Shown here in pieces: positions 1,858-55,916 of a stretch of DNA of 64,000 bases (positions within the stretch are counted from its first letter, which is position 1; each line of letters opens with the position of its first letter). The notes beneath the pieces were generated by a model. That model had not been told where the DNA came from and ran no database searches. It worked only from the letters and a program-made list of their open reading frames with translations. The stretch comes from Octopus vulgaris. Lineage: Eukaryota. The stretch spans positions 108,128,001-108,192,000 of the forward strand of contig OX597819.1 of the NCBI GenBank assembly GCA_951406725.2, given 5' to 3'. The translations under genes and the position numbers were made by a program.

Positions 1858-3381
1858 TTAACGTGCCAGCGGCATGGGGGCAACTGGGTCCGGGGTACTT
1901 TGGGGATCCGGGGTACTTTGGGGATCTGGGGTACTTTGGGGATCCGGGGTACTTTGAATGGGTAGGGGGTATGTGGAATTGCTGCAGAAAGCAGCCCGGG
2001 TCTTTGCAGTCACAGCATATCTCCAGAGATCTCGGTCTTTCGCCATTGCCTCAGTGAGGCCCAATGCTCTGAGGTCATGCTTGACTACCTCATCCCATGT
2101 CTTCCTGGGTCTACCTCTCCCCCTGATACCTTCAACTGTTTGGGAGTGGCACTTCTTCACACATCTCTCTTCATCCATCCGCAGCACATGACCATACCAT
2201 CGCAAGCGTCGCTCTTGCACACCACATCTGATGCTTCTTATATCCAGCATTTCTCTTAGGATGCTTACACTCTGTCTTGCGTGCACACTGACACTACACA
2301 TCCAGCGGATAATGCTAGCTTCATTTCTTTCAAGTCTACGCATGTCCTCTGCAGTCACTGCCCATGTTTCATTACCGTGAAGCATGGCAGTTCGCACACA
2401 TGCATCATACAATCTACCTTTCGCTCTGAGGGAGAGACCTTTTGTTGCCACTAGGGGTAGGAGCTTTCTGAACTTTGCCCAGGCTATTCGTATTCTAGTG
2501 GTGATACTCTCTGTGCATCCACCTCCGCTACTAACTTGGTCACCCAGGTAGTGGAAACTATCAACTACTTCTAGTTTCTCTCCCTGGAGTGTGATGGAAT
2601 CTGTTTTCTGAGTGTCTGTTGTGTCTATTGTCCCTGTGCATCTGCCGCACATGAAAGCTATCTTATCTGTTAATTTCCCTTTAATGTTGCTGCATCTCTT
2701 ATGTGTCCATAACTTACATTGGGTGCATCTTATGGAGTTTCTACCTGTACCTTTCCTACAGATTGAGCAGGGCCACCTACCCGAGGGTGTGTGTGCTGAG
2801 TACCTCTTGCTGCTTACTAATACTTTGGTCTTTGCTACATTTATTCTAAGGCCTTTTGATTCCAACCCTTGCTTCCACACCCGAAATTTCTCTTCTAGTT
2901 CCGGTAGTGATTCTGCTATGAGAGCTAGGTCATCGGCATAGAGGAGCTCCCAGGGGCATCCCGTTTTGAATTCCTCTGTTATTGCCTGAAGGACTATGAT
3001 GAATAAAAGGGGACTGAGGGCTGAGCCCTGGTGCACACCTACTTCTACCCGGAATTCTTCACTATATTCGTTGCCAATCCTAACCTTGCTGACAGCCTCT
3101 CTGTATAGAGCCTGTACAGCCCTTATTAGCCATTCTTCAATCTCCAGTTTCCGCATCGACCACCAGATGAGGGAACGGGGAACCCTGTCAAAGGCTTTCT
3201 CCAAGTCTACAAAAGCTATGTAGAGGGGTTTATCTTTAGCTAGGTACTTCTCCTGCAGTTGTCGGACCAGGAATATAGCATCAGTGGTGCTTCTACCTGG
3301 TACAAAACCGAACTGCATTTCATCTAAACAAATTCTCTCCCTAATGAGATGGGTTATGACCTTCTCTGAGACCTTCATCAC
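1858..3381 (-). CDS. RTE ORF2 C-terminal part (RT core with inserted C4HC3 finger, thumb, C-terminal domain)
   Basis: 507-aa ORF with the YADD catalytic motif and the other RT motifs listed for the element. Confidence 0.9.
   Translation of the reverse strand: MMKVSEKVITHLIRERICLDEMQFGFVPGRSTTDAIFLVRQLQEKYLAKDKPLYIAFVDLEKAFDRVPRSLIWWSMRKLEIEEWLIRAVQALYREAVSKVRIGNEYSEEFRVEVGVHQGSALSPLLFIIVLQAITEEFKTGCPWELLYADDLALIAESLPELEEKFRVWKQGLESKGLRINVAKTKVLVSSKRYSAHTPSGRWPCSICRKGTGRNSIRCTQCKLWTHKRCSNIKGKLTDKIAFMCGRCTGTIDTTDTQKTDSITLQGEKLEVVDSFHYLGDQVSSGGGCTESITTRIRIAWAKFRKLLPLVATKGLSLRAKGRLYDACVRTAMLHGNETWAVTAEDMRRLERNEASIIRWMCSVSVHARQSVSILREMLDIRSIRCGVQERRLRWYGHVLRMDEERCVKKCHSQTVEGIRGRGRPRKTWDEVVKHDLRALGLTEAMAKDRDLWRYAVTAKTRAAFCSNSTYPLPIQSTPDPQSTPDPQSTPDPQSTPDPVAPMPLAR
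1886..1957. repeat. 18-bp tandem repeat x4 (GGGATCCGGGGTACTTTG) at the RTE ORF end
   Basis: Visible directly; translates as (QSTPDP)4 on the minus strand. Confidence 0.95.
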
Positions 3382-5048
3382 CTGTCCAACAGTTTGATAC
3401 CTCTGTAGTTATTTCTATCTAGAGCATCACCCTTACCCTTGTAGCAGTTGACTATGGTGCTGCTGCACCAGTCATTGGGTATGACTCCATTGTGAACTAC
3501 CTGGTTTACAATGCGGGTGACTATGGTATAGCCCACATAGCCAGCTGTTTTAAGCATCTCAGCAGTGATTCCTGATAGGCCAGGGGCTTTGCCTGGTTTC
3601 ATATCCTTAATTGCCTTATCTACAAGGGAGCTGTCTATTCGGGTAGCTGGTCCCTCTACTGGGTCAACATTTGGCAGGCTCTCCTCCTCCCATTCATTCT
3701 CCTCATTCAGCAGTCTTTCATAATGGCTTCTCCAAGCCTCTTTCTTTTCACTAGCAGTAAATGCAAGTGCCCCATCATCCATGCGGACACATTTCTCTCC
3801 TATAACATCACTATTTTCTCTGACACACTGTCTGGCAATCCGAAATACTTCAGCTCTTTGATCCTCGCGTCGCTGGACATTGGCAAACTTCTTCTTTTCT
3901 GCTACGTCTTTGGCTATGTATACCTGCCGCCCAGCCTCCCTTTTGGCTATCTGGTACAGTTCCCTGCTGCCCCCATCCTTCCAGGCTTTCCAGGCCCGTC
4001 TCTTTTTACAGATGGCTTTATCTACTGCACTATTCCACCACCACGTAATTCTAGGTCTGGAAGGGACTTTGCACCATCCACAGACTCGGTCTGTGGCACT
4101 CAGCAAGCTGTCCCGTAGGAATTCCCAGCTACCTTCTATGTCTGACGTCTGAAGCTCCTCCTCCCTCTCATCAAATTTCTTGATGAGTATGTCCCTAAAT
4201 TTCTGACCATGTGAAGGGTTCTTTAGCCTCCAAATCCTTCTTTTCTGGATTGGTTTGTTTCTTGGAGTCCTTCTGGCCTCAAGCTTAAAGTCACTGATGA
4301 TTAGTCTATGCTGAGGGATACATTCTTCACCCGGGAGGGTCTTTGTATTCAAGAGCAACCCTGCATCCCGCTGTCTGGTGAGGATGAAGTCTATTTGGCT
4401 AGCGGAGTCTCCTGACTGATAGGTTATAAGGTGGCAGACTGGCTTCTTGAAGTTAGTGTTGCAGATTGAAAGGTTACATGCATCACAGAATTCCAGCAGT
4501 CTAGTTCCCTCATCATTTCTGGTGCCAATACCATAGCCACCATGTACCCCAGTGAAGATACCCGATTCCCGCCCAACATGCCCATTAAAGTCTCCACCTA
4601 CAAAGATGAGGTCCTTGCTACTAGTCTTTGAAGTAGCCTGCAGAAGGTTATCATAAAAGTTGTCCTTCTGATCATTTGGTAGTCCCGCTTGTGGGGCATA
4701 GGCGGAGATAATCATAGCTGTGCCACTCTGTAGGACCAACCTGAGCTTAAGCACTCTATCGCAAACCCTGACAACCTCTATGACCTCATCCACCCATTTC
4801 TCCGCAAGGAGAATGCCTACACCCCCTACACCTTCCACGTTACCTTGCCAGAAGAGTTTGTACCTAAGTGCCTTGCCCGTGAGGACCCTAGCCGAAGCAC
4901 CTCTCCATCTTACCTCTTGTATGCAGCATACATCAACCTGTCTTCTCTCTAGCATCTCTACAATCTCACTAGACTTGCCTGTCAATGTACCAACATTGAT
5001 AGTGCCAACTCTGAAAACTGGGAAGGAGATGTGGGGGGAGGGGGGAAT
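3378..5048 (-). CDS. RTE ORF2 N-terminal part (APE endonuclease, linker, RT domain 0)
   Basis: ORF 3378..4985 extends in frame up to the TGA at 5049-5051. It ends at a -1 frameshift near 3385 (IKLLD|QVMKV expected). Confidence 0.85.
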   Translation of the reverse strand: MPPSPHISFPVFRVGTINVGTLTGKSSEIVEMLERRQVDVCCIQEVRWRGASARVLTGKALRYKLFWQGNVEGVGGVGILLAEKWVDEVIEVVRVCDRVLKLRLVLQSGTAMIISAYAPQAGLPNDQKDNFYDNLLQATSKTSSKDLIFVGGDFNGHVGRESGIFTGVHGGYGIGTRNDEGTRLLEFCDACNLSICNTNFKKPVCHLITYQSGDSASQIDFILTRQRDAGLLLNTKTLPGEECIPQHRLIISDFKLEARRTPRNKPIQKRRIWRLKNPSHGQKFRDILIKKFDEREEELQTSDIEGSWEFLRDSLLSATDRVCGWCKVPSRPRITWWWNSAVDKAICKKRRAWKAWKDGGSRELYQIAKREAGRQVYIAKDVAEKKKFANVQRREDQRAEVFRIARQCVRENSDVIGEKCVRMDDGALAFTASEKKEAWRSHYERLLNEENEWEEESLPNVDPVEGPATRIDSSLVDKAIKDMKPGKAPGLSGITAEMLKTAGYVGYTIVTRIVNQVVHNGVIPNDWCSSTIVNCYKGKGDALDRNNYRGIKLLDR

Positions 5049-13450: not shown

Positions 13451-14689
13451 TTAGGCAGTTGATTCTTTCAGATTGTCCAGGTAATCTCGAAACTGCTCAT
13501 AAGTAAGCCCCATTGCTTCGTAATCCCACTCTGGAGGGGCATTATGATGGTTACTATGACTGTCCGTACTAACTCCTGCTGCCCCTGTTGCACCTTCAGT
13601 AGGCATAGGGTTGGCTGTGATGCGGATGCTGCATTCAGATCCCATGTACGTAGACACAGTACTATTGCGATTGCTTCCACTTCCGCTGCCGCCCCCGGCG
13701 GACGTGGCAGCGGAAGAATTGGCTGATGCAGAGCCAGCTGACCTGGTGCTCTCTGTACCACTGTACAGGCGAGCACGCATCTGGTTCCCATTGAAGTCCT
13801 CCTCAGGCATCAGAGTCTGAGAGCAGCGCGTATTAACGGCATTCCGCTCCAGTGTTGCTTGACCGACCCACACCCAGTCACGGGCACTCGACACAGGCTC
13901 TGTTCCACCACACATGTCTTTTGGTATTTGCTTGCGGCGATAGCGTACAGTGAAGACAACACAGTTCACTGTAAAGACAATGATTGCCATGCAGAAAACA
14001 GCCAGCAGGACATACATGACAATCTCCAAGGCAGAGAGTTCTGGTGCTTTCACTACTTGTTGCAGCTGAGGTGCAGATTTTGGTCTCATTCCATCAACAT
14101 TGTTATTGTTATCAATAAGGAAGTCTTGTTGCACATGTTGTTGTTGATTCTGCTGCTCTTTATATTGGAATTGTCGGTGGTCAGCCACTTTAGGAATTTG
14201 CTTAATACCACTTTTGATGTTTTCATAGTAGATTTTGTTATCTTGAGCACTGATGTCAATAGTGGGCACAGAAAATGAAGTCTGGGGAGACGATTTTTGG
14301 TTCCAGCGGTCACTAGCACGGTTGTCATAACGATTAACTCGGTTGTCAAAGCGACCTGCTCGGTTGTCATAGTGACTATCTCGCTGCAGTTTGTCAAGGT
14401 AGCTTCGTTCATTAGTAAACTCAATGTTCATGTGAAGAGTTTTTGAGACAAGTGGTAACATATTTTTCTTGAAACATCTATGTCCAAGTCTAAGGGAGAT
14501 GTTCAACTGACCCTCACCTGGGCCTGTAGCAATTACAGTTGGTTGATAAGGCAAACCAAATGGTCGAGGGATTTTCAGCACTTGTCGATTAAGTGAAGAA
14601 ATTTCTAGCTTGTAATCTAATGGTGAAATATATTTTAGAGGAACAACTGTCTTATCTGTAAATTGCACAGCGATGTCCAACAGGGCTTC
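13451..14689 (-). CDS. TMEM132: TMEM132-family protein, last coding exon (end of ectodomain, TM helix, cytoplasmic tail)
   Basis: Acceptor ttatattccag|GAA. Encodes EALLDIAVQFTD, ELSALEIVMYVLLAVFCMAIIVFTVNC (matches the family TM motif [26 protein letters not shown]), DWVWVG, and the C-terminus YEQFRDYLDNLKESTA*. Stop TAA at 13451-13453. Confidence 0.95.
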   Translation of the reverse strand, partial: EALLDIAVQFTDKTVVPLKYISPLDYKLEISSLNRQVLKIPRPFGLPYQPTVIATGPGEGQLNISLRLGHRCFKKNMLPLVSKTLHMNIEFTNERSYLDKLQRDSHYDNRAGRFDNRVNRYDNRASDRWNQKSSPQTSFSVPTIDISAQDNKIYYENIKSGIKQIPKVADHRQFQYKEQQNQQQHVQQDFLIDNNNNVDGMRPKSAPQLQQVVKAPELSALEIVMYVLLAVFCMAIIVFTVNCVVFTVRYRRKQIPKDMCGGTEPVSSARDWVWVGQATLERNAVNTRCSQTLMPEEDFNGNQMRARLYSGTESTRSAGSASANSSAATSAGGGSGSGSNRNSTVSTYMGSECSIRITANPMPTEGATGAAGVSTDSHSNHHNAPPEWDYEAMGLTYEQFRDYLDNLKESTA

Positions 14690-14754
14690 CTGGAATATAA
14701 AACAGAAAAATTTTATTTAAGACAATAATGATAATGAAATAGAAATATGTTTTA

Positions 14755-18975: not shown

Positions 18976-19879
18976 GTGCTGTTATACAACTTTATATAAT
19001 ATAAATATTATATATTACATTCATATTGTATATTTACACTTTATTTCAATTAGAAGTACAAAAGATGATGATGATGCAAAAACTGTGCATTTGTACAAAT
19101 ACACATTTTTTTAATAACTGATGTAGAAATGAATAAATAAGTTTACACAAGGCTTTTCAAGATGAAATCAAATTTTTTTTTTAATTGAAAGTATTTGAGT
19201 GATGCTTACTCACATGGATGCACACATACTTTGCAAAAAAAAAAAAAAGACATTTCTGCACACAGTCCACAGCCAAAAATTGTCTTCCAATAAAAAAAAT
19301 TGGAATTTATTTGGAAAGTCCCCATCCATGGTTCTTAGCATTAGCCAGGAAATCAGTTGCACCCACCATCTCATTGAGAAGCTAAAGATGTTGAGTAAAA
19401 TAGACTCCAGTAATGACTCAAAAAACATTGAAGCTATTGATTGGTACAGTATAGTCCTGGAAGAGATACTGCTAGTTCTTGTGGACAATAGGTTGCAATA
19501 TTACCATGGAAAGATGCTGCTACAGTTGATGGGCGACATATCAAAACAGATATGGAGGATATAATGTCAGGTAGATTCTGCCATGACCTGAAATCCATTG
19601 CATAAACTGTCACTCTTCTTAGACAGTAGATATAATATTTAGCCTGGTTTAACACCAGTACTTGGCTGTTGAGTGCTTTAGTGAAGTGCATTCTGATGCA
19701 AGCATCCAGACAAGATACCCAGATTATTCCTTCCTTTTCCCCACTAGCTTCGTGCATCCTTTTCTTTGATTAAGCCCCAAGAAAATAAATAAAATAAATT
19801 AAAGAGAGAGGAGTAATCACTGACAAAAAGTTAATGTGAAATACAGAGTCATCTCCCTTGGATTAATATAGCTGCTTAC

Positions 19880-20144
19880 TTGAATTTCTGTCAAGCCTGG
19901 GTTTTTGCCCATAATAATATTCCCGCTTAAGGAAGCGATGTGGGAGTCAGACAAACGTAGACGGTCCTTCAACATTTCAGTGACACGGAAGTAAGTCTTC
20001 TTGCCCGTGTAGTACTGCAGCCGACCATTTTCTAGGACACAGAAGCTAGCGTAAACATCAACGGTTGACTGTTGGTAACGCAGACGACACATATTTCGTG
20101 TTGGGTCATCCATTCCAAGAATTTTGTCCCTCTTCTTACGGCGA
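19880..20144 (-). CDS. TMEM132: TMEM132 exon (265 bp, phase 2/0)
   Basis: ttgcag|T...ATTCAA|gtaagc. Encodes RRKKRDK...CRLRYQQSTVDVYASF...RVTEML...PGLTEIQ, matching the family CxLQYQxAxVxVLTQF...PGxTxIQ segment. Confidence 0.93.
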
Positions 20145-21309
20145 CTGCAACACATGGAAAATAAATAGATAAATAAAATAAGAAATGGTAAAATATATGA
20201 ATCACTGATTTTCGTAAACCATTAATTTTCCTTGGCATTGTCCTTACATTACAATATTAGTGAGACATCATGAGAGAGGGAAGGAGGGGATTTATGAATA
20301 TTTCTAATTTTAGATACAGGGCCACTCATTCTGAGGGAGAATATAGTCGATTAAATTGACTTCACTACTTGACTGTTTGTTTTTTTGTCGACTTTGAAAG
20401 AATGAAAACATTGACATTATCTGAATTTGAACACAGTTTGTAATTAAATGCTGCAAGGGATTTTGATCAATACTCTTTCAAATCTACCATCCACTACACT
20501 GGAAGCAGTCTATAATACTAAAACAATCTGGTTGCAAGACTCTGGTTTGTACTCTTGTAAACAAAGCTGAAAGAGTTGACTAAATTCACACCAGTATATT
20601 ACTGGGAACTATTTGACTGAGCTTAGAGGTAATCTGAAATGAGGATGTATCAGGACAAAGCTGTAAATTGTAAAGTATTTATTCTAATGATCTATTACAA
20701 CCAGTTGGATATACCTGGACGTTATGGTATATAGGAACCCTGAAAGACTCCAGAAGCAAAAGTCTTACAAATATATTGATTGAGTTGTCTGATAAATTCG
20801 TCCATTCCTTTTTTCCATTCGTTTTAATCTGTTCCAATGTTATTTGAATTAACACAAACACTACTTTTATCATAGTTTTATAGGATTTTTTTTGAAGCTC
20901 CATTCTTCCAACTTTTGCTTACTGTATTTTAAATTTAAACAAGTTTTACCTATTTTCAGACATATGGCGGATGGAATGCCAAGCAGAAAGAAACAAAACA
21001 AATTTATCTGACAACCTAATATCTCAGATTATGTATCATCATCTTCATCTTATCTAAAATGCTTCCAATTACAGTTCAAATAACAATTTTCTGGTGTTGG
21101 GTTTGTTCACCAGAAGAAAAGGAAGTGTTCATAAATTTTGTAGATCATCCTAGACAGGTGAAATTCATGTGATTAATGAGCAGTTTGTACTTCTAAAGGT
21201 TAATGTGGATAGATGGATAGAGAAAATTCCAGTGTTTTTAGTTTTTAGTGAGATTTGTAGGAAGGGGAGAGACAACAGAGATGAAGCAAAAGAGGAGAGA
21301 CAGATATAA

Positions 21310-21430: not shown

Positions 21431-23430
21431 ACTTTGGATTTGATCATATATTTTACAACAATACTAAAGTTGTTTTTATATTTAGAATTTATTAATTATT
21501 TTAGAATTTATATTTAGAATTTTTGAAATCAGCATTATGACTTAGCAGAGTTGTCTGATATAATAAGTAATTCAATTTGATACATAAACAATGTCGTGTT
21601 TGGGAAATTATACTTTTGATTTCACATTCTGCCAAAGTCAACTTTAATCTTCATTCTTCCAGGATAAATAAAATTGGTGTTGGCAGTGGTATCATTGTTG
21701 TCATCACCACCATCCCCATCATTAATAATTAATAACGTATCAAACAATTTAATATTTTGGAACTATATTTGTCTGGCAAATGGCTTTTTTTTATTAGTTG
21801 GTCAGGAGAAAAGAGAACATCTATGATCCCTTTTTCAAGGCTTCTCAGACTGGTGGGAGGCAGAAAAGTAGCCTCAAACTTGAAGCCTAACTTGACTGCA
21901 TGAAACAGACAGGATTGCACTAAAGGTACTCAAGGCCCAGCTGGTGATGTAAAACCAGGCAATGGATTAAATCTACCATCCAATTAGACCACAGTGGGAT
22001 TTGAACTCAGAAAGCAAAGAGTTGGAGAAAATACTGCATGCCAACTTGTTTAACACTTCAAGGTTTCCATTAGTCCACTAACCTCAACTAGTATACTTCA
22101 TATATTATATATTGCCCTGGAGAGGATGAAAAACTAAGTTGATCTTCGTGGGAATTGAACTCTGAATGCAAAACCACAGAGAGTTTTGTCTAACACTAAC
22201 AACTCTGCCACTGAAATCATTGCATTGTAGCAGAGTTTTGCTAGTCATTTAAAACATATAGCTTTACGTTCACTTTTGTTTTATTTTCTAATAATATTAT
22301 GAAATGAAACAAAAAGTGATGTTTGTTTTTGAATAAAATATAAAAAAATGGTCTATGTGTGTTATTAATGACTACCATGGCTCTACTATAACAATAATTT
22401 AACACAATGTTTAGGATCACAAGAATGTGAGGAAATTAAGAGTGGGGTGTGTGTGAAAGAGTCAGTGGAATACAAGATAAAAATGAGGTACAGTTAATGT
22501 GCTGTTAGAAGTAGAGAAGAGAGGAAATATTTAATATTTAAGAGGAAGTGTTTCATCATGAGAACACCTGATGAAGTATTCTACATGAAACACTGCATAT
22601 TACTTCATATCTGAATAAACAAGCATATTGTAACATAGTGTAAACATATTTGATGTATATTAATACATTTCTAGTTAGCATTAAAAAGCTAACAAGTTAC
22701 AGATAGTATCTCTGAATGATTTAATATATAACTAAATAATTCTGTTTCTATGCCAATAAATGTATTATAATTTGTGATTGTTCCACCACTTCTTTGGCAC
22801 ATGTTGTGAAGTCTATATTTTGCTAAAGAAATCAGGATAATACCAAAACATGTCTGGAGTTGTCTATCATACTTGAAGAATGTAAAGATAATATTGATCA
22901 TTATTATTTTCAATATTTTCTTGTGAAATGTGAAGGTGGCAAGGAATCCTGGACTCATTTAACATCACTTCAGTCTCCTAAGTTGAAAATAAATACCATC
23001 TGAGTACTGGTGCAGCATTATCTCCACCCCACAGTCATATCTTCAATGTTTTTCTGAGTCAAAGGAGGGAGGGCTTAGGGGGTATTTATATCAGCTCCTG
23101 ACTATACAATAATTAGTGAAGCATGGAGAACGGACGTTAAACGATGATGATGATAGTACATGGTAGCAAGTCATACTCATTTGTGAGTATTTGCTATGGT
23201 TCTGGTTCCTCATCACATATCTATTTCTAATTAACATCTCGTTATTCCCAGCATTTAGTATATTAATACTTAACTGTTGTTTTTCATATGGATAAAAGAA
23301 CATAGGTTTACTTAACCAAAGTTGACCTGAAGCTAAGCAACAATAGCAACAACATACACACACACACACACACACACACACTGAGAAACATCAAATCAAT
23401 TGCCAATAAAAAGAAAGTGTGGTAACTTAC

Positions 23431-23636
23431 AGCAAGATGCGGTCCTTTGTCACTTTCCATCGTTTGATCTGACTGAGTTTGTTATCTGACAACTGGATGT
23501 TGAGTCTTTCATCTGGCATCCACACTGTGACATGTGTAAAGGCAACCAGCTGCCGTGACTTGGCAATTACTGTGACATTGCGTGACCCAATCTTCTCTTT
23601 GCCATCAACATAGATGAAGGAACAGTTCCGAGAAAC
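23431..23636 (-). CDS. TMEM132: TMEM132 exon (206 bp, phase 0/2)
   Basis: ttgcag|GTT...TTGCT|gtaagt. Encodes VSRNCSFIYVDGKE...TVWMPDERLNIQLSDNKLSQIKRWKV, matching the family VSxxCDYIFVNGKE...TVWVP...SDTELNQIKGW segment. Split codon CT+T fits the next exon. Confidence 0.95.
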
Positions 23637-23727
23637 CTGCAAACAAACAACAATTATTATTATTATTATTATGATTATTATTATTATTACTACTACTACT
23701 ACTACTATTATTATTATTATTATCAAT

Positions 23728-24180
23728 AAGGTGGCAAGCTGACAGAATTGTTAAAATGTCAGATAAAATGCTTAGTGGTATTTCTTCTGGCTCTCTACAT
23801 TCTGAGTTCAAATTCTTCAGAAGTTGACTTTGCCTTTCTTCATTTTGGGGTCAATAATATAAGCACCAATCAAGTACTGGGGTCAATATAATCAACTCCT
23901 GAAATTTCAGGCCTTGTGCCTATATAAGAAACAATTGTTGTTGTTGTTGTTTTTAATAAAGGTGACAAGCTGACAGAATTGTTTGCCTATCAGACAAAAT
24001 GCTTAGTGCTGTTTCTTCAGTCTTTTTACATCCTGAGTTGAAATTCTGCTGAGGTTGATTTTGGCTTTCATTCAAATGATGTTGATAAAACAAGTACCAG
24101 TTGAGCAGTGGGGGGTCAATGTAATTGACTTCCCCAACTTCCCTGAAACTGGTGGCCTTGTGCCAAAATTTGACACCATT
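23728..24180 (+). mobile_element. Two tandem SINE family B copies
   Basis: aaggtggcaagctgacagaattg heads at ~23728 and ~23960, with gagttcaaattc B-box and the shared core. Confidence 0.8.
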
Positions 24181-24557
24181 ATTCTCACAAGGAGGCAACC
24201 AGGTAGAATCATTAATGCATTGGGCAGAAAATGATGGTACAGTCATGAGTGAAATGATTTTGACCATAGGTCTGCTTGATAAGAGCCAACAGGAGTCTAA
24301 ACAACAATAACCTCAGACTAACGAGGGCGATTTCTTGACTAGCTAGAAACAAATTCAATTACTCTATCATCTTAAAAAAGCAGACACATTGGGTTAATGC
24401 AATTCTGGATTCACTATGTCTGGAAAAAAAAAAAAGCAGGAAAGTCATGGCTGGAATGCCTTTGACCTTATGTCTTCTGGGTCAGGGCTGAAAAACAATA
24501 CTGATAATTACAGTCATTAGAGAGGATTGACCATTAAGAAAACCATTCTCCAAATAC

Positions 24558-24701
24558 CTTTAAGACGTTATCATTGCTTGAATGACAAGATGTCAGCCAT
24601 GTGACATCATGGATGCTCCCTTCTTTGTTCACCACAAATATCTGTAATGGGTAGATTTGTGTTCGACCAGTGAGGGATGCAACGTTCATTATCTCAGTCA
24701 C
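24558..24701 (-). CDS. TMEM132: TMEM132 exon (144 bp, phase 0/0)
   Basis: tttcag|GTG...TTAAAG|gtatt. Encodes VTEIMNVASLTGRTQIYPLQIFVVNKEGSIHDVTWLTSCHSSNDNVLK, matching the family EILNTAVLTG...CxSxDEDVIK segment. Confidence 0.93.
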
Positions 24702-24884
24702 CTGAAAAATGGAGAGAAATAAAGAAAATTTTAAAAAATTTCAATTAAAAAATATTTTTAAAAATTAAGAAAAAGTGTTTACATGATTAATTATGACAAA
24801 GGATTTCTGAATCATAGTGAAATTATAGTAAACGGGATGTACAAAATAACTTCTTACTTCCCATCCTCCCATTTTAAAAATATT

Positions 24885-25333: not shown

Positions 25334-27477
25334 ATTCCTGTCTGGTCTGTTAGAAAATTCCAGAATTTCTTATTGCCGTGTTTATTTAAATGAAGGAACA
25401 TGGGTTCAATCAGTAAACAAGTTTCCAGTAGACCATTAGTACATGGTGCATTGGGCTTGAAAGTATTGAAAAACAAAACTGACTGGCTAGATTTGAAAGC
25501 AGAAGCACGAGGTCATTGATTAAATACAAGAAAACATCTGTTCCATGTTCACCTCAGCATCACACACAAGGCAAGAACTTAAATTACAACTTCAGCCCAA
25601 GTGGACAATAATCTGCTTGATAGAGTCAACTGGGACTTTCAGGATGAGAATAAGTCCATGTTTAGAAGAAATAAATGAAAAGTGACAATTTTCAGACACT
25701 TGCAATTGTATGAGTTGATGATGTGACTTGAACTTGTTTGGTGGCATTTGCTTTCAAATGAAGATCTGTAAAATGGCATTTATGATTATTTTATCTCTTG
25801 TAAGTTATTATGTTTATGATTTTAAAGTACATCCTTTAACATAAAGTTATGTTAGAGACAATTCAAAAATGCTTAGGAACAAAAAAAACAAACAAGTGTA
25901 ATATTCACCCTTTAGTGTTCAAATTTCTTTGTCAAATATAATGTTTATTTATTTACATTGTTTTGAATTAATCATGCATAATCTTTTAGCTTCAAAACAG
26001 GTAGAATATTTGGGCTGCATATGGCCAGATTAAACACTAAAGGTTGAAATGAAATTAATATACTAAATACAGAAATTATAAAGACCACCTTTTCAAATCA
26101 TCAAAAACTTCAAACAGCCAGAATTTAAAGAAGACAAAGATTAATGCATTAAATAGTTTAAAAATTGTAGGAAGTGTTTGAAAATTTGTAATGTATGATG
26201 TGAAAAACTTAGAAGCATTTATAAATAATTTATTTAATATGTTTGCAGTTGCACAAATGTGTACATCTATATTTTGCTTTCTTTTGCATTTATATGATGA
26301 ACTTGTTTTGTGCAGAATCATTTTACATTTGAAGACATCCTACCAAGGATAGTAAAGTGCAAGCTGAAAATAGCCTTTTGCTTTTTTCAATCAATCCATG
26401 ATTGCAGAGTTTTGCTGCAGCTTCATTAGCTCATAAGCTGTAATCCAAATGTCTGCTTGAAAACACTGCTTTTGAAATAATAATTTGAAGCCTCATTTAT
26501 TAAGAGAATTCTCTCCATATCCCTGGTCTTGTGACAGAAGATTTTTTTTCACTCTTCATAAATCAATATTGGCACCATCAGTGCAAGATTCATTGCAGTG
26601 CAGCCTACAAACAAACTGCACCACAACAATCTATCAGTTATGGTGATATCTGACATGGAGCAACTGCAAATTCTTTGATAAGGTGTAGTACTTTGTCCTT
26701 CATCTTGCAACAGTATCACTTCCTTAAATATGAAAGCTGATCTGTTGTCTGATTCAGAGAAAGCCTGAAAAAAAAATAAGTCATTGCTTTGCATGTTGTC
26801 TCTCCTAAACTCAAAGCAGTGCAGCTATAGGAATTTGTGGTTTCTTTCCCAGTTTTTAATGAGAACCAAAATTCTGGCTCTGCATCTGTAGTCAAATATA
26901 AAATTACTCAGAAATATTACTACACCTGCGTCACATTCCAAGACATACTTGCATTAAGTTTTGGCTATTTGGAGTTTTCAATGATTCAGGTGTACTGTCT
27001 TTATAATTCATGCATATAATATCATATAAACTTTGTTTGATATTGCAGTTGATTTTTTTTTTTTATCTTAAGCATTTTTAATTATCTCTAAATTAACTTG
27101 ATATTAACAGCTTCACTGGCATCGTAAATACTTATAAATACCTTATAAAGACAAAAGATTCTTCTTTGAAAGTAAATGTCACCAAATATGTACAGACTAT
27201 TAACTCTAATGTTACAGAAATTTTTTAATATTGTCACCATCTTCTTAAACACAGCTCATTACAACAGCTGGTCTCATATACCTAAATATTGGGTTCATTG
27301 CCCACTGGAGTTGAAGACATAATTTAGATCCTTACCTTTAATGGGAAACCACAAAGTAAACTTTTGCACCAGTTTGAAATGAAAATTAAATTTTGTCATA
27401 GTTCTATATTTAAGAGATGAGAAATTATGTACACTATTTACATTTGACAAATATTTGTCCTCATCTTGTTTGTTGCT

Positions 27478-27523
27478 TGCACAACATTTCAACTGATATA
27501 CCCTCCAGCCTTCATCAGGTGTC
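27478..27523 (-). ncRNA. Minimal type I hammerhead motif, decayed
   Basis: gacac-CTGATGA-a-ggctg-gagggtatat-cagtt-GAAA-tg-tt-gtgca; stem II and stem I are weakened. Confidence 0.6.
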
Positions 27524-27669
27524 TTGGGAAAATTTAAAACCTGGGTTCTCATTCCTAAGGTATTTTTATATATTATTATTATTATTATTATTCAGGTCAC
27601 TGTCTGGAATCAAACTCGGAATCTTGAGGTTAGTAACCTGCACATGTAACCACTATGCCATATGCCTAT

Positions 27670-27742
27670 GGGCATATGGCATAGTGGTTAAGAGCGCAGG
27701 CTACTAACCCCAAGACTCCAAGTTCGATTCCAGACAGTGACC
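27670..27742 (+). promoter_or_regulatory. tRNA-derived head / internal Pol III promoter (mirror copy on the minus strand at ~27595-27667)
   Basis: A-box TGGCATAGTGG and B-box GTTCGATTCC at tRNA spacing, with a 7-nt loop CTACTAA. There is no T4 terminator in the downstream arm until the TSD. Confidence 0.75.
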
Positions 27743-27817
27743 TGGAACGCCGCCGCCGCCGATGACAACGACAACAAATACCTTAGGAATGAGAACCCAG
27801 GTTCGAAATTTCCCCAA

Positions 27818-27860
27818 GACACCTGATGAAGGCTGGAGGGTATATCAGCCGAAACGTGTT
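27818..27860 (+). ncRNA. Minimal type I hammerhead motif with a 3-nt deletion at the cleavage site
   Basis: gacac-CTGATGA-a-ggctg-gagggtatat-cagcc-GAAA-c-gtgtt, versus GAAAcgttgtgtt in the 38451 copy. Confidence 0.7.
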
Positions 27861-28653
27861 AACAACAAACAAGATGAGGACAAATATCTGTCAAGTGTAA
27901 ATAATATACATAATGAAATTTTGTCATGTCCAACATCTCACTATTTTGTCCAGTTTTGAAAAGTTTCATCTTTTTTTTTTTTTTGGTACACTATATCTAG
28001 TCTACTCCAGTATTTTCCAGCAAATTTCCTTCCTATATACCCAAGCTTAAACTCATCCAGTGTCTCCCATTCAGTTCAGTCAATGCAGGTTATACTCAAG
28101 GATTTACGGTACTACTCAAGTCCAGCACTCCTTTGGTTACAACTACAAGGGTTCCAGTTGATCTGACCAAACAGCCTGCTCAGGAAATTAACATGCAAGT
28201 GGCTGAAAACTTCATTAATTTGTCGATGGAGTGATGACTAAGCCCTCCACAGACAAGCACACCATTAATGGAGTTTTCAGGGAGATTCAGCATGACTCAG
28301 AATGTGACAAGGCCAGCCCTTTGAAATACAAGTACTGTAAATCCTCGAGTATAGCCCGCCCTTGAGTATAATACGCAGGGGATTTTTAGGGGGCTGTACC
28401 TCTGAAAAACCAAGAATCTTTGCACCCTTTCCTCTTTATGTTTCCCTTACTCTTCACCATTATGTATCTTTGTGGTTTATCCTGTACTGTATACCATACA
28501 CGCACTTTAGCTAATGTTACTAACTTTCTTTATTTAATTTATTGATGCTTCCTTTGGCCCTTTTCTTATTTTACCCTTTCCCAATTAGTTCTAGTGTACC
28601 TGGGCACTGTATACAATAAGTTTATTATCATCATTATCATCATCATCATTATA

Positions 28654-37110: not shown

Positions 37111-38272
37111 TCATAATTCAGTGAAGGGAAGCCAGGATTTAACCATTGGATGATTTGCAGTGGGATTGCTCACCCTAAGTAATCCTACCTACTTCTTACT
37201 ACACAATGCGGTTAGCCTGAACCTGGACTATGCTTGAATGCTCATATGTTTTGCACTGTACATCACAACAATCTCTAAATTTTTTTGGCACAGTTCCTTT
37301 TTAGCATGCTGGATAAAAAAAGGGTTGTAAGCTCCTTGCTTGACCCTTTTCCATTTCTTGCATGCACAGAAGATTGTGAGTGGTACCAGACAATCTTTAC
37401 ACACCAAAATGTAATTAATTGAGATAGAGAGAGAGGGAGAAAGAGGGGAGGGGTATAGATGGAAGGCAGAGAGATTGAAGGAGAGCAGGGGGGAGAGAGA
37501 TGGAAGGAGAGAGAGGGGAGGGAGGGAGGGAGGGGGTACTGAAATTTTATTTATTGCCCTTGAAGGATGAAAGGCAAAGTTAAACAGTGAAATTTGAACT
37601 CAGAATGCAAAGAGCCAAAACAAATACCACAAGACATTTGTTCACCATACTAATTAATCTAGAAATTGAATGCCTTCATATTACACACACATCTATATCA
37701 AAGTATACAAGAATGAAGTATGTATGTAATTATACTGTTTTCTGTCAATGGATCATAGCCATGCCAGGGCATCACCTTCGAGGTTGAAGCAGCTCAAAGC
37801 AGCCCCTGCAGTTATTTCAGTTGCTCTATCTATATTTATGGAATAGCTGAAAGATTTATTGATGTAGAGGGATGTAATTCAAGACAAACCACATCTACAT
37901 GTGTAATAGGGTGCTACACATTCTAAATCTAGCAAATTTCACACATACGTTATTGGTCAACCTGAGGCTGTAATAGAAGCCTTTAGCACGAGATAGTGTG
38001 CAATGCACACACAAACACACACAAGTTCTAGTGCAACCTATTCAAATGAATATGGTAAAACCACATAGAAAAGGTATTCTGAATATGAACATATTGTATT
38101 AAAAGTGTGAGTCCAACAAAATATGTTTTGTTTTGTTCAATGAACACACCAGGAAACACAGAACCATGTTAGTGGCATTCATTTAAAGCTATCGCAAAAT
38201 AAAACATAATAATACTACATTATTTACATTATTTACATTTGACAAATATTTGTCCTCATCTTGTTTGTTGTT

Positions 38273-38318
38273 AACACAATGTTTCGGCTGATATACTCTC
38301 CAGCCTTCTTCAGGTGTC
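38273..38318 (-). ncRNA. Minimal type I hammerhead motif with one substitution in stem III
   Basis: gacac-CTGAAGA-a-ggctg-gagagtatat-cagcc-GAAA-ca-tt-gtgtt. Confidence 0.7.
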
Positions 38319-38450
38319 CTGGGGAAATTTCGAACCTGGGTTCTCATTCTCAGGGTATTTTTCAGTGACCTGAATAATAGTAATAATAATAATAATAATA
38401 ACTTCAAAGAATACCTTAGGAATGAGAACCCTGGTTCGAAATTTCCCCAG

Positions 38451-38496
38451 GACACCTGAAGAAGGCTGGAGAGTATATCAGCCGAAACGTTGTGTT
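38451..38496 (+). ncRNA. Intact minimal type I hammerhead ribozyme (Penelope-type)
   Basis: Stem I gacac/gtgtt; core CTGAAGA plus an extra A; stem II ggctg/cagcc; GAAA; palindromic stem III AACGTT. Predicted cleavage after GUU at 38491. Confidence 0.8.
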
Positions 38497-41400
38497 AACA
38501 ACAAACAAGATGAGGACAAATATACGTTAAATGTAAATAATGTACATAATTCTTCATCTCTCAAATATAGAACTGTATGATAATACTAATAATAAAAAAT
38601 AATTCATACAGTGGTGTTTGTTCTTCATGTTAAATCCAATCCTGTTACTTGAAATTTGAACTCAGAACGTAAAGATGAATGAAACGCTGTTAGCATTTTG
38701 CCTGGCATCCTAACAATTTTTCCAACTCGCTGCCTTAATTCAATGAGTAATATCAGTTCAGTTTCTCTTTCGTGATTATTGTTGTTTTTGCAGTTTGTGT
38801 TGTTTAGCCCCAAGTCTGCACCGATTGAATAAATCTATGATCAAATGTGTTCCAGCCATGCCCATCTTGTATTTTGTTTATTGACAGTATATTCTTCCTT
38901 CTTTTCTGTTTTTTTTTTAAAGACATGATGTATTGGAATAAATTTGGATGTTATTTCTAGCAGCTTGAGTGGTTGCATAGAAGCTCCTTTTTCATAGTTG
39001 ATGTTGTTCTTGTTGCTGATGGTGGTGGTGATGCCGCTGATGTTCTTGTTGTTGCTGGTCTTATTTATAAACCTGTTGATATTTAACAAAATATTACAGG
39101 AGTTGTTTATGTTATTGTCAGGGCTGCTGTCTTATAGTCACCATCACTATTGATATTGTCATTGTAGCTGTAGCTGTAATTGTTGTGGTGAGTATGTTTA
39201 GTGCCATTTGAAACAGGAGACTGAGATGAAGTGGTAGAACACACATTGAGACAAACTCATACACAAACTCACATACAAATACTCACACAATGACAGAATC
39301 ACACACACAAAACAAACAAAAAATACATACACAGAGGAATTTACACACAAACACTGGCAGACCTATACATACACATACAAAAAAACAAAAGGAAACACAC
39401 ATGCATACACACACAAACACACACACACAAACACTAGTTAGCTGACACTTAAGGTGTAGAGTGTTGTTTTTATGTCAAACTACTTCAGGGAACCAATTAG
39501 TAGATTGACAGACATCCAGATGTTTGTTACATTTCAACAACCTGAACAATCCACCCATCCGACCCACCCCACTTTCTCTCTTCTTCTCTATCCATACCCT
39601 CTGAATATTCTGAAATGTCTGAAATAATGAGGACATTTCTATCTGTGTCACATCATGATCATCTTCTGACATGGTTGGTGGAGCAGTAGCTTGTGTGATC
39701 CTAGAATTCCTACAGTAATGTTGTTTGAATCTTAGCTCTGATTAAGGCTTCAGTTAGTGCTCCAGCTTGGCTCTGATTAGAGAGGTGCAGCTTGGGTTCT
39801 GATTAAAAAATCCAGTTATGGGTTAGAGCTCCTACAATGACTCCAACTAGGGCTCTACAAGCATATGATGAGAGCATGTGCATGGTCATTTAACTAACAA
39901 AAATAGCTAAATTCCCCTCACATCATATACAACCATTTTAAAGAAGGAAGAACACATAGTATGATATTGTTCTAGATACACTTACACAGATGGGATGATC
40001 ACAGGTTTGTCCAATTAGTGCTGACCTTGATGCTAAACAACAACAACAGCTAGAACACTACTAGAGCAATTGATTACTCCTGATTGTTTAGGATAATTGA
40101 CTTTTCCTTGTCCATATGAAGAATTTTAGTATTGGAGCAAACAAGACTGACATAAGAGATCTCATTCTTTTGTTGTTGTTGTTGTTGTTATTGGAAGAGT
40201 CATTAGGAGATTGGGTAGAAAGTTTTTTCAGATTTCTCTCCCAATTTCAACTTCTGCTGTGGTCCACTTTGCCTTTGGACCCTTCTGGGTTGATAAATAA
40301 AATATCAGTCAAGTAGTGAGGTTGCTTCTCTTCTCTGTCTTGAGGTCATCTATGTTGAAAAGGCCAAGAAATGAGCATTCACATCATGGCTGCATTAATC
40401 TTTTCCATATCACTTCTGTAGATCTACTAAAAGAGTCCCGATCCAGCTGACCTATAATCAAACATGTTCAATTTCATCTTTTTATAGACACAGTCTCTCC
40501 ACCCACCTCTCTGTGTAATTACATTATCCAATGTGTTTCGTTTTTTTTTTCTTTTAAGACAATGCTTGTGATTTGAGGAAGACATTGAAATCATTTCTAT
40601 TAAGAGCTGTGATGGTTTTAACACTAGTGGCTGTAGCTGTTGTCATTGGCTTGTGGTAGCTACAGTTGTTATTCTTTGGTGGTTATACTGGTTATTGTGG
40701 TTTGTCCGTAGGTAAACTCTGAATTAAAATACAATGATGCAGTGGCGTGTTTTACAGATTATTTGTACGTCTTATATATGTTGCTGAAATGTTTTGATGA
40801 TATAATTCTCAGTAATCTGGGCTAAGATTGAATCTGGAACTTCTATTTACCAAACGGCTATGCTTTAACCACTGGCCTTACTATCCTGAAGGACAACAGT
40901 GCTGTCATTTTAAAGATCTTAAACATAAGATTTAACCAACTTGTCTCCATATATTTTGGTATGTCAAGTGCAGGCTGCCACTAAATGTATGTGTGAGTGT
41001 ACACACACACACACATGTAAACATATAAATGCAAAAGAAACTGGAGTAAAAATAGTTTTTGAATACTGAAAGTTGAGTAGACTACTATTTCAATGAAGCA
41101 GAAAGAAACCTTGCAAACTGTTACCCAGAGTTTCATGTAAACCATTCATCAGACAGTTTCTGACCAGCATGAAATTCCGAGTAACAGTTTGTGAAGATTT
41201 TTTTTCAACTATAGTAATATAGAGTGCGTGTGTGTGTGTGTGCATGTGCATGCATATGCACACGTGTGTGTATTGGAGGCAACAAATTTCATTTAAGCAT
41301 GTGGTTGGCTGTGAGTACATGCTACTGACAAAGTCACAATGATGCAGAAATTAATCTAGCATACTCACTAGCCACTGCTGTGATGTGTTTTGTCTCACTA

Positions 41401-53220: not shown

Positions 53221-54674
53221 CAATTATTATATTACTACCATTCCAACATATCACCACCACCACTTCTATCACCTTAATTATCATCATCATCACCACCACC
53301 ACCACTATAACCAATAGCCACAACTACCATCACCACGATCACTGCCACCGCCCCCGCCCCCACCACCATCACCACCATCATCATCATTCAGTTCCAAGAT
53401 AAGACATTCCAAGAGTTTTATCTACTCAGCAACTGGATGATTGCAAGGTTTCTCCATAAACTTTTCTCTGATAGCAGCAGCAGTTGTGGAGGTGATGGTG
53501 GTGGTGGCGATGGTGGTAGTAGTGGTAGTGGTGATGATGGTGGTGGTAGTTGTAGTGATGTTGGTCATGATGGGAATGGTGGCAGTAGTGGTGATTGTAA
53601 TTGATGATAGTGGTAGTTACAGTGATGGTTGTAGTGGTGGTGTTGTTGGCAACGATGGCGGTGGCAGAAACAGTTTTGGCAGTTGTGGTGGTGGTGGTTG
53701 TAGTAGTTGTAGTAGTATTGGTGTTGGTTCTGTAATGAAGGCTTGTTGTGGTTAACAGTAGAGTTGCGTATTGCATACAGTAATCTGAGAAGGAAGTAGG
53801 TTAATGGCCATAATCTTCTCTATACACCCCCACTATACACCATCAAACCAGTGAGCTACTTAGTGGTAGGTCAGCATATAAGAAATAGTAGCCAAATCTC
53901 TCTCAAATTACATCCTGCCATCTTATAAGGGAAAAATACACATCTGTACAATGTGGTCTCTGAGATAGAAAAAGTTGGGATGGTGTCAGTTGGAAGCCTT
54001 TTAACTATAAACTTCTATGCTCTGGATGGACAGGAGCTAAACAACAACAATAAATATAACAAAAGGGGACTGGAGGAGTCCTTAGTGATAATTAGGTACC
54101 ATTGATAGGGCTACTATTGAATTTGAACCACAACATTAGTTGTACAAAAGAGAAACAGAATGAGAGTCTTAGTGGCTGATGCTGCTACTGATGATGATGA
54201 TGATGATGACGATGATGGTGATGATGCTATTGCTGTAGTTGTGGCCATTGCTGTGGTTGTTTTGTTATTTTTTGCTGCTGAGTTTTTACAGTTATTGTTG
54301 TTACTATGGTGATATATTTGCTGTTGTGATTGTATTAGTGGTTGGTTTGGAATTGTTGTTGTTATTGAAGTGGTGGTGGTGGTGGTGGTAACTGAGGCTG
54401 TCATTGTTTTGGTTGCTTTCGTTGTTATTATTGATAGTGGTCATGGCATGTGGAGCGAAGAAGCAAATCATTGTTATGAAGCTAAAAGAAAATGCCTGCC
54501 ATGAACATACATGTGTCTGGCTCATGTTTAGGAGACACACATGAAAACATCAGAAATGGCTGACATCAAGAGAAAAGCTAAAAATGGAACAATCTCCATA
54601 CCACTTGGATTTGTAATTTAAGAGATACCCTTAAAAAACATAATCCCATTACCACTATCACCACCACCACCAAC

Positions 54675-54832
54675 TGGATTTGTACAGGGTTGATGGTCCA
54701 GCAATCTCAAGCCATATGAATTGTTACGTCATGGGTAAATTCAGGAAGAATATTATAAACATTTTCAAAGAATTTGACCTAAATATAACTGTTACTAACT
54801 TAACAAAGGTCAGTTTTCTGAACTTAACCCTA
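54675..54832 (+). pseudogene. Penelope-like element RT fragment
   Basis: GLYRVDG...KFRKNIINIFKEFDLNITVTNLTKVSFLNLTL resembles the PLE RT motifs GLYRDDG...KKxIIKIFKxxGLxITI..N...VxFLDVTL. Confidence 0.65.
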
Positions 54833-54962
54833 GAACAGTGGTCCTCAGCCAGGGTCCACATGTCCCTTGGGAGTCCTATATGCAACAAATTGATTATATC
54901 TCTACATCAAATATTTTTTATACTGTTTTTTATGATATTTAATTATAAAAATATGAATTTAT

Positions 54963-55916
54963 TCAGGAAGTTAAGCAAAACATTGAAGACAATCGAGGAA
55001 AACCAATGAGGTCAATTGCAAAAAAATTTCGTGTGTCAGAAAAAATAATCAGAAATGTTGTGCATGAAGACATCAGATACAAATCTTACATGATGAGGAG
55101 AGGTCAATTCATGTCAGAAAAAAACAACAGAAAACCATTTAATCAGATCCAAAAGACTTTTGAACAAACTTAAAAATCCATCAGAAGATGGTGTGATTTG
55201 TTTTTTTTCTCAGATGAGAAAAACTTTGACAAAGACCAGAAAACTAACAGAAGAAATGACAGATGGCAATGTGCAGACCCTTCTGAGGTTCCAAGAGAAT
55301 GCACACAAAATTTCCTGCAAGTGTCATGGTTTTGGGTGTTGTTAGCAATGAAGGACATGTGATGCCTCCTCACTTTTTTCCACAAGGCCTTGGGGTGAAT
55401 GCTGCTGTGCATATTGAGGTTCTGGATAAAGTTGTTAAGCCTTGGATCAACAGTGTATGCAATGGAAGACCTTATGTCTTTCAACAAGATTCTGCACCAT
55501 CACACAAGGTTCAAATGACACAAGAATGTATCTCTGACAATTTGCGTGATCGCATCACCCCCAATATTTGACCTCCTAATTCTCCAGATCTCAGTCCACT
55601 GGACTACTATGTATGGAGCATCGTTGAGAAAAATGTCAATGAACGCCCTCATAGCACTGAAGATTCTTTGAAAGCCACCATAGTTCGAACCATGTCCGGT
55701 ATGAACAAGGACCACTTAATCTGAGCTTGTAAACAATTTTGACCTTGTGTAGAGGCAGTTATTGATACTTATGGTGGTTTTATTGAATGAAAATATTAAA
55801 TTGATAATTTAGCTTTATGTTTATGCTATTTTTATAAAAATACAATTTTTTCTGTTATTATATAAGTGTTTGTTTTTAAAACCATACATCTGTCCTCAAA
55901 TACCATCTGCATCCTG
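54963..55916 (+). mobile_element. maT (DD37D) transposase pseudogene with right TIR
   Basis: MRSIAKK, FFSDEKNF, KFPASVMVLG, FQQDSAPSH and PPNSPDLSPLDY; 37 residues counted between the second and third D. Contains stops and frameshifts; ends CCTG|TA. Confidence 0.9.

Follow-up and report, generated by a model that had tools for sequence, protein, structure and literature searches.

The palindrome at 27388..27927

The stretch analysed here is a 64,000-nt piece of the Octopus vulgaris genome (contig OX597819.1, positions 108,128,001 to 108,192,000; hereafter the window, numbered from its first letter). It carries at 27388..27927 a palindromic insertion, which almost certainly consists of two back-to-back, 5'-truncated copies of the pseudo-long terminal repeat (pLTR) of a Penelope-like element (PLE). 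The inverted arms lie at 27400-27667 (minus strand) and 27670-27915 (plus strand), are about 80% identical across 250 nt, and are flanked by identical 12-bp direct repeats at 27388-27399 and 27916-27927 (both plus strand), which correspond to a target-site duplication (family mode 12-13 bp, range 8-15). The boundaries of the insertion are based on this duplication together with the family alignment. A preliminary description had proposed the inverted arms, the bounding duplication and a tRNA-derived head with A and B boxes, all of which were borne out.

Reading outward from the centre, each arm opens with a tRNA-Arg-derived head, at 27593..27667 on the minus strand (A box 27650-27660; B box 27607-27615, with one change) and at 27670..27744 on the plus strand (A box 27677-27687, B box 27722-27730, 45 nt apart). 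The right head is followed by a trinucleotide spacer at 27745..27775 (plus), drifted from the AAT repeat of the family to GCC/AAC, and by the 5' end of the parent open reading frame (ORF) at 27789..27915 (plus), this short arm being devoid of the terminal "tail". The left, long arm (27400..27667, minus) is a complete pLTR with head, AAT spacer and the first ~50 PLE codons including hammerhead and tail; by comparison with tandem copies, the start codon of the parent ORF would lie at 27550..27552 (minus). The tail, as delimited by 3'-end clustering and folding, is a ~25-nt extension at 27400..27423 (minus) present in the left arm alone, where it closes the 3' hairpin. In agreement with the preliminary description, folding of this hairpin is confined to that arm (z -2.15 versus -0.63 in the right). 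The head-to-head junction falls in a short palindrome at 27665..27672 that is native to the border between the 3' untranslated region (UTR) and the head of the parent; a symmetric centre is present as first described, measuring 2 nt within this native 8-bp palindrome instead of the 4 nt assigned to it.

The minimal type I hammerhead motif claimed for each arm is real, with both copies damaged. The right one (27818-27860, plus; core 27823-27829) lacks 3 nt at the cut site, a recurrent deletion in the family, while the left one (27478..27523, minus; core 27512-27518) has lost two G-C pairs closing stem II and a C of stem III, and does not fold (z +1.25). Because both ribozymes are damaged, the focal copy is inert. 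Compared with the family consensus, the left arm shows 24 differences in 240 aligned nt and the right arm 9 in 214, a gap that, despite their joint insertion, fits two templates of different age.

It should be noted that the tRNA and hammerhead assignments are based on our own alignment, profile and motif tests. ARAGORN and Rfam, of which the latter had been put forward as a check in the preliminary description, reported no tRNA and no hammerhead for the focal copy, for two well-preserved ones or for L382 (a distant relative, see below), and ARAGORN run on the head at a lowered threshold returned an implausible fold alone.

An autonomous Penelope-like parent and its family

The head aligns best to the host genome's own tRNA-Arg (48/68 letters, z ~9, 11 tRNAs tried); against a profile built from 13 tRNAs it reaches 23.8 bits, the best of 580 shuffles attaining 6.1. 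The A and B boxes are held 45 nt apart and the cloverleaf is gone. As judged from its sequence, the pLTR starts with a tRNA-Arg-derived A/B-box cassette, the start codon following ~120 nt later. Maturation of a tRNA fold by RNase P was considered and rejected, the consensus acceptor and T stems reading as unpaired.

This head is a native part of an autonomous PLE. About 10 of 90 loci run on upstream of it into a common sequence whose translation gives the end of a PLE ORF, with the stop codon 29 nt before the head, and among 30 loci picked by the endonuclease piece of that protein, 23 carry the head directly behind it and 19 both head and hammerhead body. The upstream walk reached a reverse transcriptase (RT; PF00078, E 2.4e-10, locus L218). 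In tandem copies the tail runs into the ORF (226 junction matches at no more than one mismatch). The consensus unit, built from 110 aligned pieces, spans 2,656 nt with an open ORF of 835 aa that starts 120 nt after the first base of the head; on the same coordinates the hammerhead core lies at +154, the predicted cut after +189 and the unit end at +273. Hammerhead and tail make up the first ~50 codons of the parent ORF and the pLTR comprises the 3' UTR plus these codons, partial tandems being present. The consensus protein is 57% identical to P0001 over residues 11-831, hammerhead-coding start included, 37% identical to an Anolis carolinensis protein of 836 aa, and 26% identical over 117 aa to the other PLE family of this genome. 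The 150 best endonuclease matches included no intact single copy, the longest open frame being 378 aa.

The preliminary description had taken the element for a short interspersed element (SINE) that had borrowed a PLE terminus and was mobilised by PLEs. Mobilisation is well supported by the continuity with the RT and endonuclease ORF and by the PLE-type long/short pairs and duplications, and the same hammerhead and tail, which were to be looked for at the ends of autonomous PLEs, were found there, following the ORF and running into it in tandems. The borrowing did not hold up, given the position of the head behind the endonuclease, nor did a separate tail module, the tail being PLE coding sequence.

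Concerning related elements, a hammerhead motif with differing but paired stems lies behind the ORF at 20 of the 24 related PLE loci examined in other organisms, as against 0/24 reverse strands and 0/480 shuffles, which corroborates the proposed PLE-type minimal ribozyme. No tRNA-like signal appears in 26 of 27 related PLE 3' regions. The sole exception, L382, is weak (8.0 bits, T-arm part only) and holds two runs of four T (T4) where 6.1 are expected (P 0.047). L382:2820-3030 belongs to a distant Poseidon-like PLE, 38% identical and in perfect tandem, with the same order as the focal family (A/B-box-like motifs, AAT-like spacer, hammerhead inside the ORF start); it may share the layout of tRNA-type head and coding unit. 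As a separate observation, locus L296 holds seven tRNA-Cys-like genes clustered within 3 kb.

The family is large. The 2.8-Gb host genome contains 10,836 exact matches to a 23-mer of the arm and none to its reversed control, hence the arm sequence is not due to chance; after correction (61/165 arms match the 23-mer exactly) about 29,300 arms bear the body, with a mean non-CpG divergence of ~4%. Of the words in one copy, 42-60% are present in sequencing runs of five organisms. With the whole palindrome as query, 23 further full head-to-head copies were returned, a selection effect of that choice of query; in part-based and pattern searches the arms vary in extent and are variably truncated. Among 24 distinct motif-sampled insertions, classed by eye in a sampling that favours two-armed loci, 18 are two-armed and six one-armed, and only about five, again by eye, have two near-complete heads. 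Inverted pairs and single arms prevail, direct tandems being rare among the sampled insertions. The 3' ends of 391 arms form two clusters, at unit positions 238-250 and 269-273, and 95 of 129 inverted pairs combine one long with one short end. Duplications of 8-15 bp (mode 12-13) flank 57 of 86 long/short pairs, compared with 2.8% under shuffled pairing. The window itself hosts a second insertion of the family (38219..38575), an inverted pair with both heads truncated away, whose right arm retains an intact hammerhead motif and the tail. Three other loci (L332, L333 and L348) have a common internal junction 233 nt past the tail, in two of them joined to the head; they possibly represent an internally deleted, non-autonomous subfamily.

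The genome also harbors a young PLE family (L071-L090, e.g. L074:3823-5976), with intact frames of ~717 aa, copies 97-99% identical and both tandem and inverted pairs, which is probably still active. It was found with a decayed RT fragment of another PLE-like family located at 54644-55009 in the window. It shows a hammerhead-like motif with a variant core, 45 nt of its tail resemble the tail of the focal element (8/500 shuffles score as high), and its short arms end at a place matching that of the focal family, though the proteins are distant. As a candidate parent it was rejected, as there is no nucleotide match beyond the short tail likeness and the protein is distant.

Insertion, ribozyme and RNA start

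Statements on published systems refer here and below to the parts of each source that were covered. Head-to-head insertion, a one-sided tail, 8-15-bp duplications and a junction palindrome are described PLE features (PMC8557442, PMC3846280), and in vitro a PLE cuts both target strands, with two internal RT starts defining the tail (PMC11167929). Also in the young, unrelated PLE family above the same long/short inverted pairs were counted, by eye, in 7/9 cases. The inverted-dimer insertion recognised in the preliminary description is real, and its architecture is already explained as an ordinary PLE insertion product with variable arms.

Following the in vitro model (PMC11167929), the element protein would cut an AT-rich target on both strands with a stagger of ~12 nt, and each nick would prime one cDNA, the two starting from the outer and the inner site of the 3' stem-loop. 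The flank beyond the long end resembles the next six letters of the ORF, as microhomology priming would give. The two cDNAs would usually derive from different RNA molecules: the variant at position 170 and the 3-nt cut-site deletion are not shared between the arms of a pair (P 0.38 and 0.49; for the deletion 4 pairs have it in both arms, 26 in one and 68 in none), and two templates are therefore indicated. Where both cDNAs reach the RNA 5' end, they would pair through the short palindrome and complete each other, giving the symmetric centre. Both possible centre types occur (6 and 5 cases, plus 6 ambiguous), which is what pairing of two cDNA ends around a central mismatch would produce. The same grounds led us to reject a fixed palindromic master, as both types occur relative to the long arm and the arms differ. 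The least certain step is that the RNA 5' end would be a start of RNA polymerase III (Pol III) ~14 nt before the A box.

Among insertions and deletions of the unit, the one seen most often removes 3 nt precisely at the predicted cut, with 38 events in ~321 arms, the next commonest having 6. In sets not selected for an intact ribozyme 51/247 arms (about 1 in 5) carry it, as does the focal right arm, and it is equally common on both backgrounds of the core position N7 (13/74 and 41/252). An RT jumping across cut RNA via a 2-nt repeat would yield exactly such a deletion, and it is conceivable, if doubtful, that the deletion is a trace of ribozyme cleavage in vivo; slippage in the short imperfect repeat, or in-frame polymorphic source copies, could account for it as well. 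Truncations of the 5' side show a slight excess at the cut (11/237 at risk over 9 nt, a rate of 0.0052 per nt against 0.0015-0.0035 nearby) and were not counted as support. In RNA-seq of a related organism none of the reads begins at the cut site, and PMC11167929 reports no reads at the cut site and that cleavage is not needed in vitro. Within the catalytic core the sole common variant falls at the free position, N7, a pattern that would result if the ribozyme were under selection in active copies.

The 5' ends of the arms point to the head. Exact counts are 804 for a 22-mer of the 3' UTR and 5,629 for a 19-mer of the head ~55 nt away, which after correction correspond to ~3,800 arms with 3' UTR and ~21,900 with head, so that about 80% of head-bearing arms begin at the head. 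This suggests a Pol III start with SINE-like short RNAs, and in behaviour the preliminary description may have been close, as most copies start at the head just as such RNAs would. Where arms were sampled irrespective of upstream sequence, 70/102 with a head end at -30 to +12 and 6 reach beyond -30; native UTR continues in 9 of 108 arms classed by junction. Of 48 arms with the 5' half of the palindrome, 27 go on in fold-back-like letters and 9 in native ones, suggesting templates that ended near -6/-7, 14 nt before the A box. Several internally rearranged copies have different ORF positions joined to head position 1. The pLTR, where the cassette sits, also houses the promoter of D. virilis Penelope (PMC2377424). 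The sense strand of the 2,656-nt unit is free of T4 runs (P 0.004 by base shuffle, 0.024 by synonymous-codon shuffle), five other ORFs having 2-15.

On balance we favour, with modest confidence, a pLTR pair whose A/B-box head served as Pol III start for short SINE-like template RNAs. Taken by its parts, a defined RNA start at the head is likely, that Pol III acts there seems slightly on the probable side, and Pol III transcription of the whole ORF is unlikely. A bolder joint reading, in which the cassette of an upstream pLTR would drive the whole 2.66-kb terminator-free unit via Pol III, the same promoter in lone pLTRs would spawn tens of thousands of SINE-like copies, and the scissile-site deletion would record the RT jumping across ribozyme-cut RNA in vivo, is improbable as a whole.

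Several points weigh against a Pol III-driven pLTR. RNA-seq of a related organism (2 runs, 1 study) shows reads equally on both strands and no accumulation of starts, in libraries from which short Pol III RNAs may be missing. The absence of T4 runs is weak, post hoc evidence, as runs of four G are absent too and T4-free stretches also make up 7 of 67 related ORF stretches of at least 1 kb, including a family without tRNA head (L391, L402). An uncapped Pol III RNA would still have to be translated. The N7 variant is strongly common to both arms of a pair (17 both, 9 one, 69 none; P 5e-11), a poor fit to fully independent templates, with no age difference to account for it. The class of the parent is a further soft point: it is by its similarities an endonuclease-bearing (EN+) PLE of Poseidon type, placed by BLAST rather than by a tree, and Pfam finds no GIY-YIG domain in 2/2 endonuclease pieces at E 10, the region aligning through to P0001 (weak GIY-YIG, E 0.23) and P0014 with the motif spotted by eye. 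Lastly, the 3' UTR/head border folds into a hairpin (-13.4 kcal/mol), and PLEs devoid of a tRNA cassette, among them those of Adineta (PMC3846280), are known to have palindromes both at their pLTR 5' ends and where copies meet head to head, hence the pile-up of ends may need no Pol III.

These last two facts are also the core of a different account, possible though not one we would lean on, in which the element is an ordinary PLE with a passive tRNA relic captured in its 3' UTR, transcribed by Pol II or by read-through, and the cDNAs pile up at the head as the native hairpin favours fold-back and annealing. It fits the two-stranded RNA-seq signal, the scarcity of tRNA-like signals in related 3' regions, and the internal TATA-less pLTR promoter of D. 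virilis Penelope (PMC2377424). It fits less well with the position of the ends, which gather over the hairpin's 5' half (-8 to +12), a stretch in which the RNA strand has already been released, and not at its 3' base; many arms with a non-head partner stop at that half too. The rearranged copies that join varied ORF positions to head position 1, and the retention of the A and B boxes without the cloverleaf, likewise speak against this account. A free-standing tRNA-SINE, having acquired its ribozyme end from a PLE and integrating as a palindromic dimer, would explain why ~80% of head-bearing arms lack the ORF side and why 23 other full copies are readily found, and a SINE or tRNA head may have been captured in the past. 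As an account of origin it is contradicted by the 19/30 loci in which head, spacer and body form one unbroken unit with the autonomous ORF; no diagnostic sequence was seen, without a tree, that separates short from long copies, the arms are variably truncated and near-complete head pairs are few, all of which makes this origin very improbable. The long inverted arms and 12-bp duplication would also suit a fold-back DNA transposon or miniature inverted-repeat transposable element (MITE) with long terminal inverted repeats; duplications that vary from 8 to 15 bp, ends that are asymmetric in 95/129 pairs, and 5'-truncated arms continuous with an RT ORF refute it, in line with the preliminary description.

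Related systems, surroundings and implications

The closest systems are PLEs of the Penelope/Poseidon clade, i.e. Poseidon PAc of Anolis (PMC11167929), Pen2/Pen2a/Pen3a of Adineta (PMC3846280) and Penelope of D. virilis (PMC2377424). In common with these the family has a single ORF of ~835 aa with RT and a putative C-terminal endonuclease, a pLTR composed of the 3' UTR and the first ORF codons, the latter including the hammerhead, two 3' start sites that leave a tail on one side only, and an inverted, 5'-truncated copy. Short duplications (8-10 bp in Adineta) and junction palindromes are likewise shared with the Adineta elements (PMC3846280). Penelope/Poseidon pLTRs also hold the promoter, described there as TATA-less and LINE-like (long interspersed element-like) or as a putative TATA/Inr (initiator), the candidate here being the A/B-box cassette. 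The differences are that here the pLTR opens with this tRNA-Arg-derived cassette and that most copies consist of the pLTR only, beginning at it.

The ribozyme resembles the minimal metazoan PLE hammerheads (PMC4209133) in its extra base after A9, the G10.1-C11.1 pair, the palindromic 15.2-16.2 positions, a 5-bp stem I and a 6-bp stem II. Cervera and de la Pena (2014) described opposite-strand hammerhead pairs 100-700 bp apart as probably truncated PLEs; the covered text of that paper (PMC4209133) mentions neither a tRNA head nor a recurrent cut-site deletion. Schistosome SM-alpha and Sj-alpha also join a Pol III-type promoter to a hammerhead in a short repeat, yet they form head-to-tail tandems with the promoter at the 3' end of the cleaved unit, and the covered part of their description gives no link to an autonomous PLE ORF (PMC6765202). 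Metazoan non-LTR retrozymes (bioRxiv 10.64898/2026.07.22.740005) are short pLTR-related hammerhead units, regarded as non-autonomous PLE derivatives and thought to use PLE enzymes; they differ in being direct tandem repeats by definition, and no tRNA head is described in the text covered. Cassandra, Helenus and Ajax carry small-RNA-derived sequence in a retroelement terminal repeat as well, but are non-autonomous LTR elements, whereas the carrier here is an autonomous PLE (PMC10886601).

Comparison with class definitions gives the same picture. A tRNA-SINE shares the head with A and B boxes; the focal family is not a separate non-coding element sharing only a 3' tail, and instead of a LINE-type poly(A) or simple-repeat end it has two fixed 3' ends in PLE coding sequence. 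The head-to-tail hammerhead tandems of non-LTR retrozymes and SM-alpha are replaced by inverted pairs and single arms, and the symmetric ends and fixed-length duplication of MITEs and fold-back transposons are lacking. The focal insertion works like, and by the tested features is, an EN+ PLE insertion, and not a SINE, retrozyme or MITE.

Other tRNA-derived octopus repeats are the SINEs OK, OR1 and OR2, of which OR1 and OR2 are tRNA-Arg-derived. OR2 is listed as a CORE-SINE (PMC4758252), a misfit with a PLE-coding body. The preliminary description had held the architecture to be undescribed; the head-to-head dimer is known for PLEs, and what was not found in print is the tRNA-Arg-derived A/B-box cassette at the start of the pLTR. 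No account of a tRNA-derived pLTR or of a PLE-mobilised tRNA-SINE was found in the titles, abstract openings and passages covered by the full-text searches, with subscription journals, Repbase, Dfam and supplements outside their scope, and the text of PMC13282606 covered mentions neither hammerheads nor palindromes (its repeat library being outside scope).

Regarding the surroundings, exons of a TMEM132-like gene are found on the minus strand at 13454-14716, 19820-20221, 23430-23750 and 24537-24740. The palindrome probably sits in an intron of this gene, because it lies ~2.7 kb upstream of the first exon found; no earlier exon appeared among the frames tested up to 46 kb. A separate inverted repeat next to the element, at 28085-28371 (29-nt arms, 217 nt apart), is perhaps a MITE. 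On the minus strand at 1861-5048 lies a LINE whose two long frames hold an apurinic/apyrimidinic (AP) endonuclease, an RT and a PHD-like finger; it looks young.

The promoters of PLEs and the in vivo role of their hammerheads figure as open questions in the field (PMC11167929). About 20,000 or more insertions of this family are likely mislabelled as SINEs or MITEs, and the family offers thousands of natural insertion records for examining the two-primer model and ribozyme cleavage. If the favoured reading is true, a pLTR with a tRNA promoter shows how a PLE makes its own SINE-like passengers, and if the bolder one were true as well, Pol III would be able to serve a coding retroelement.

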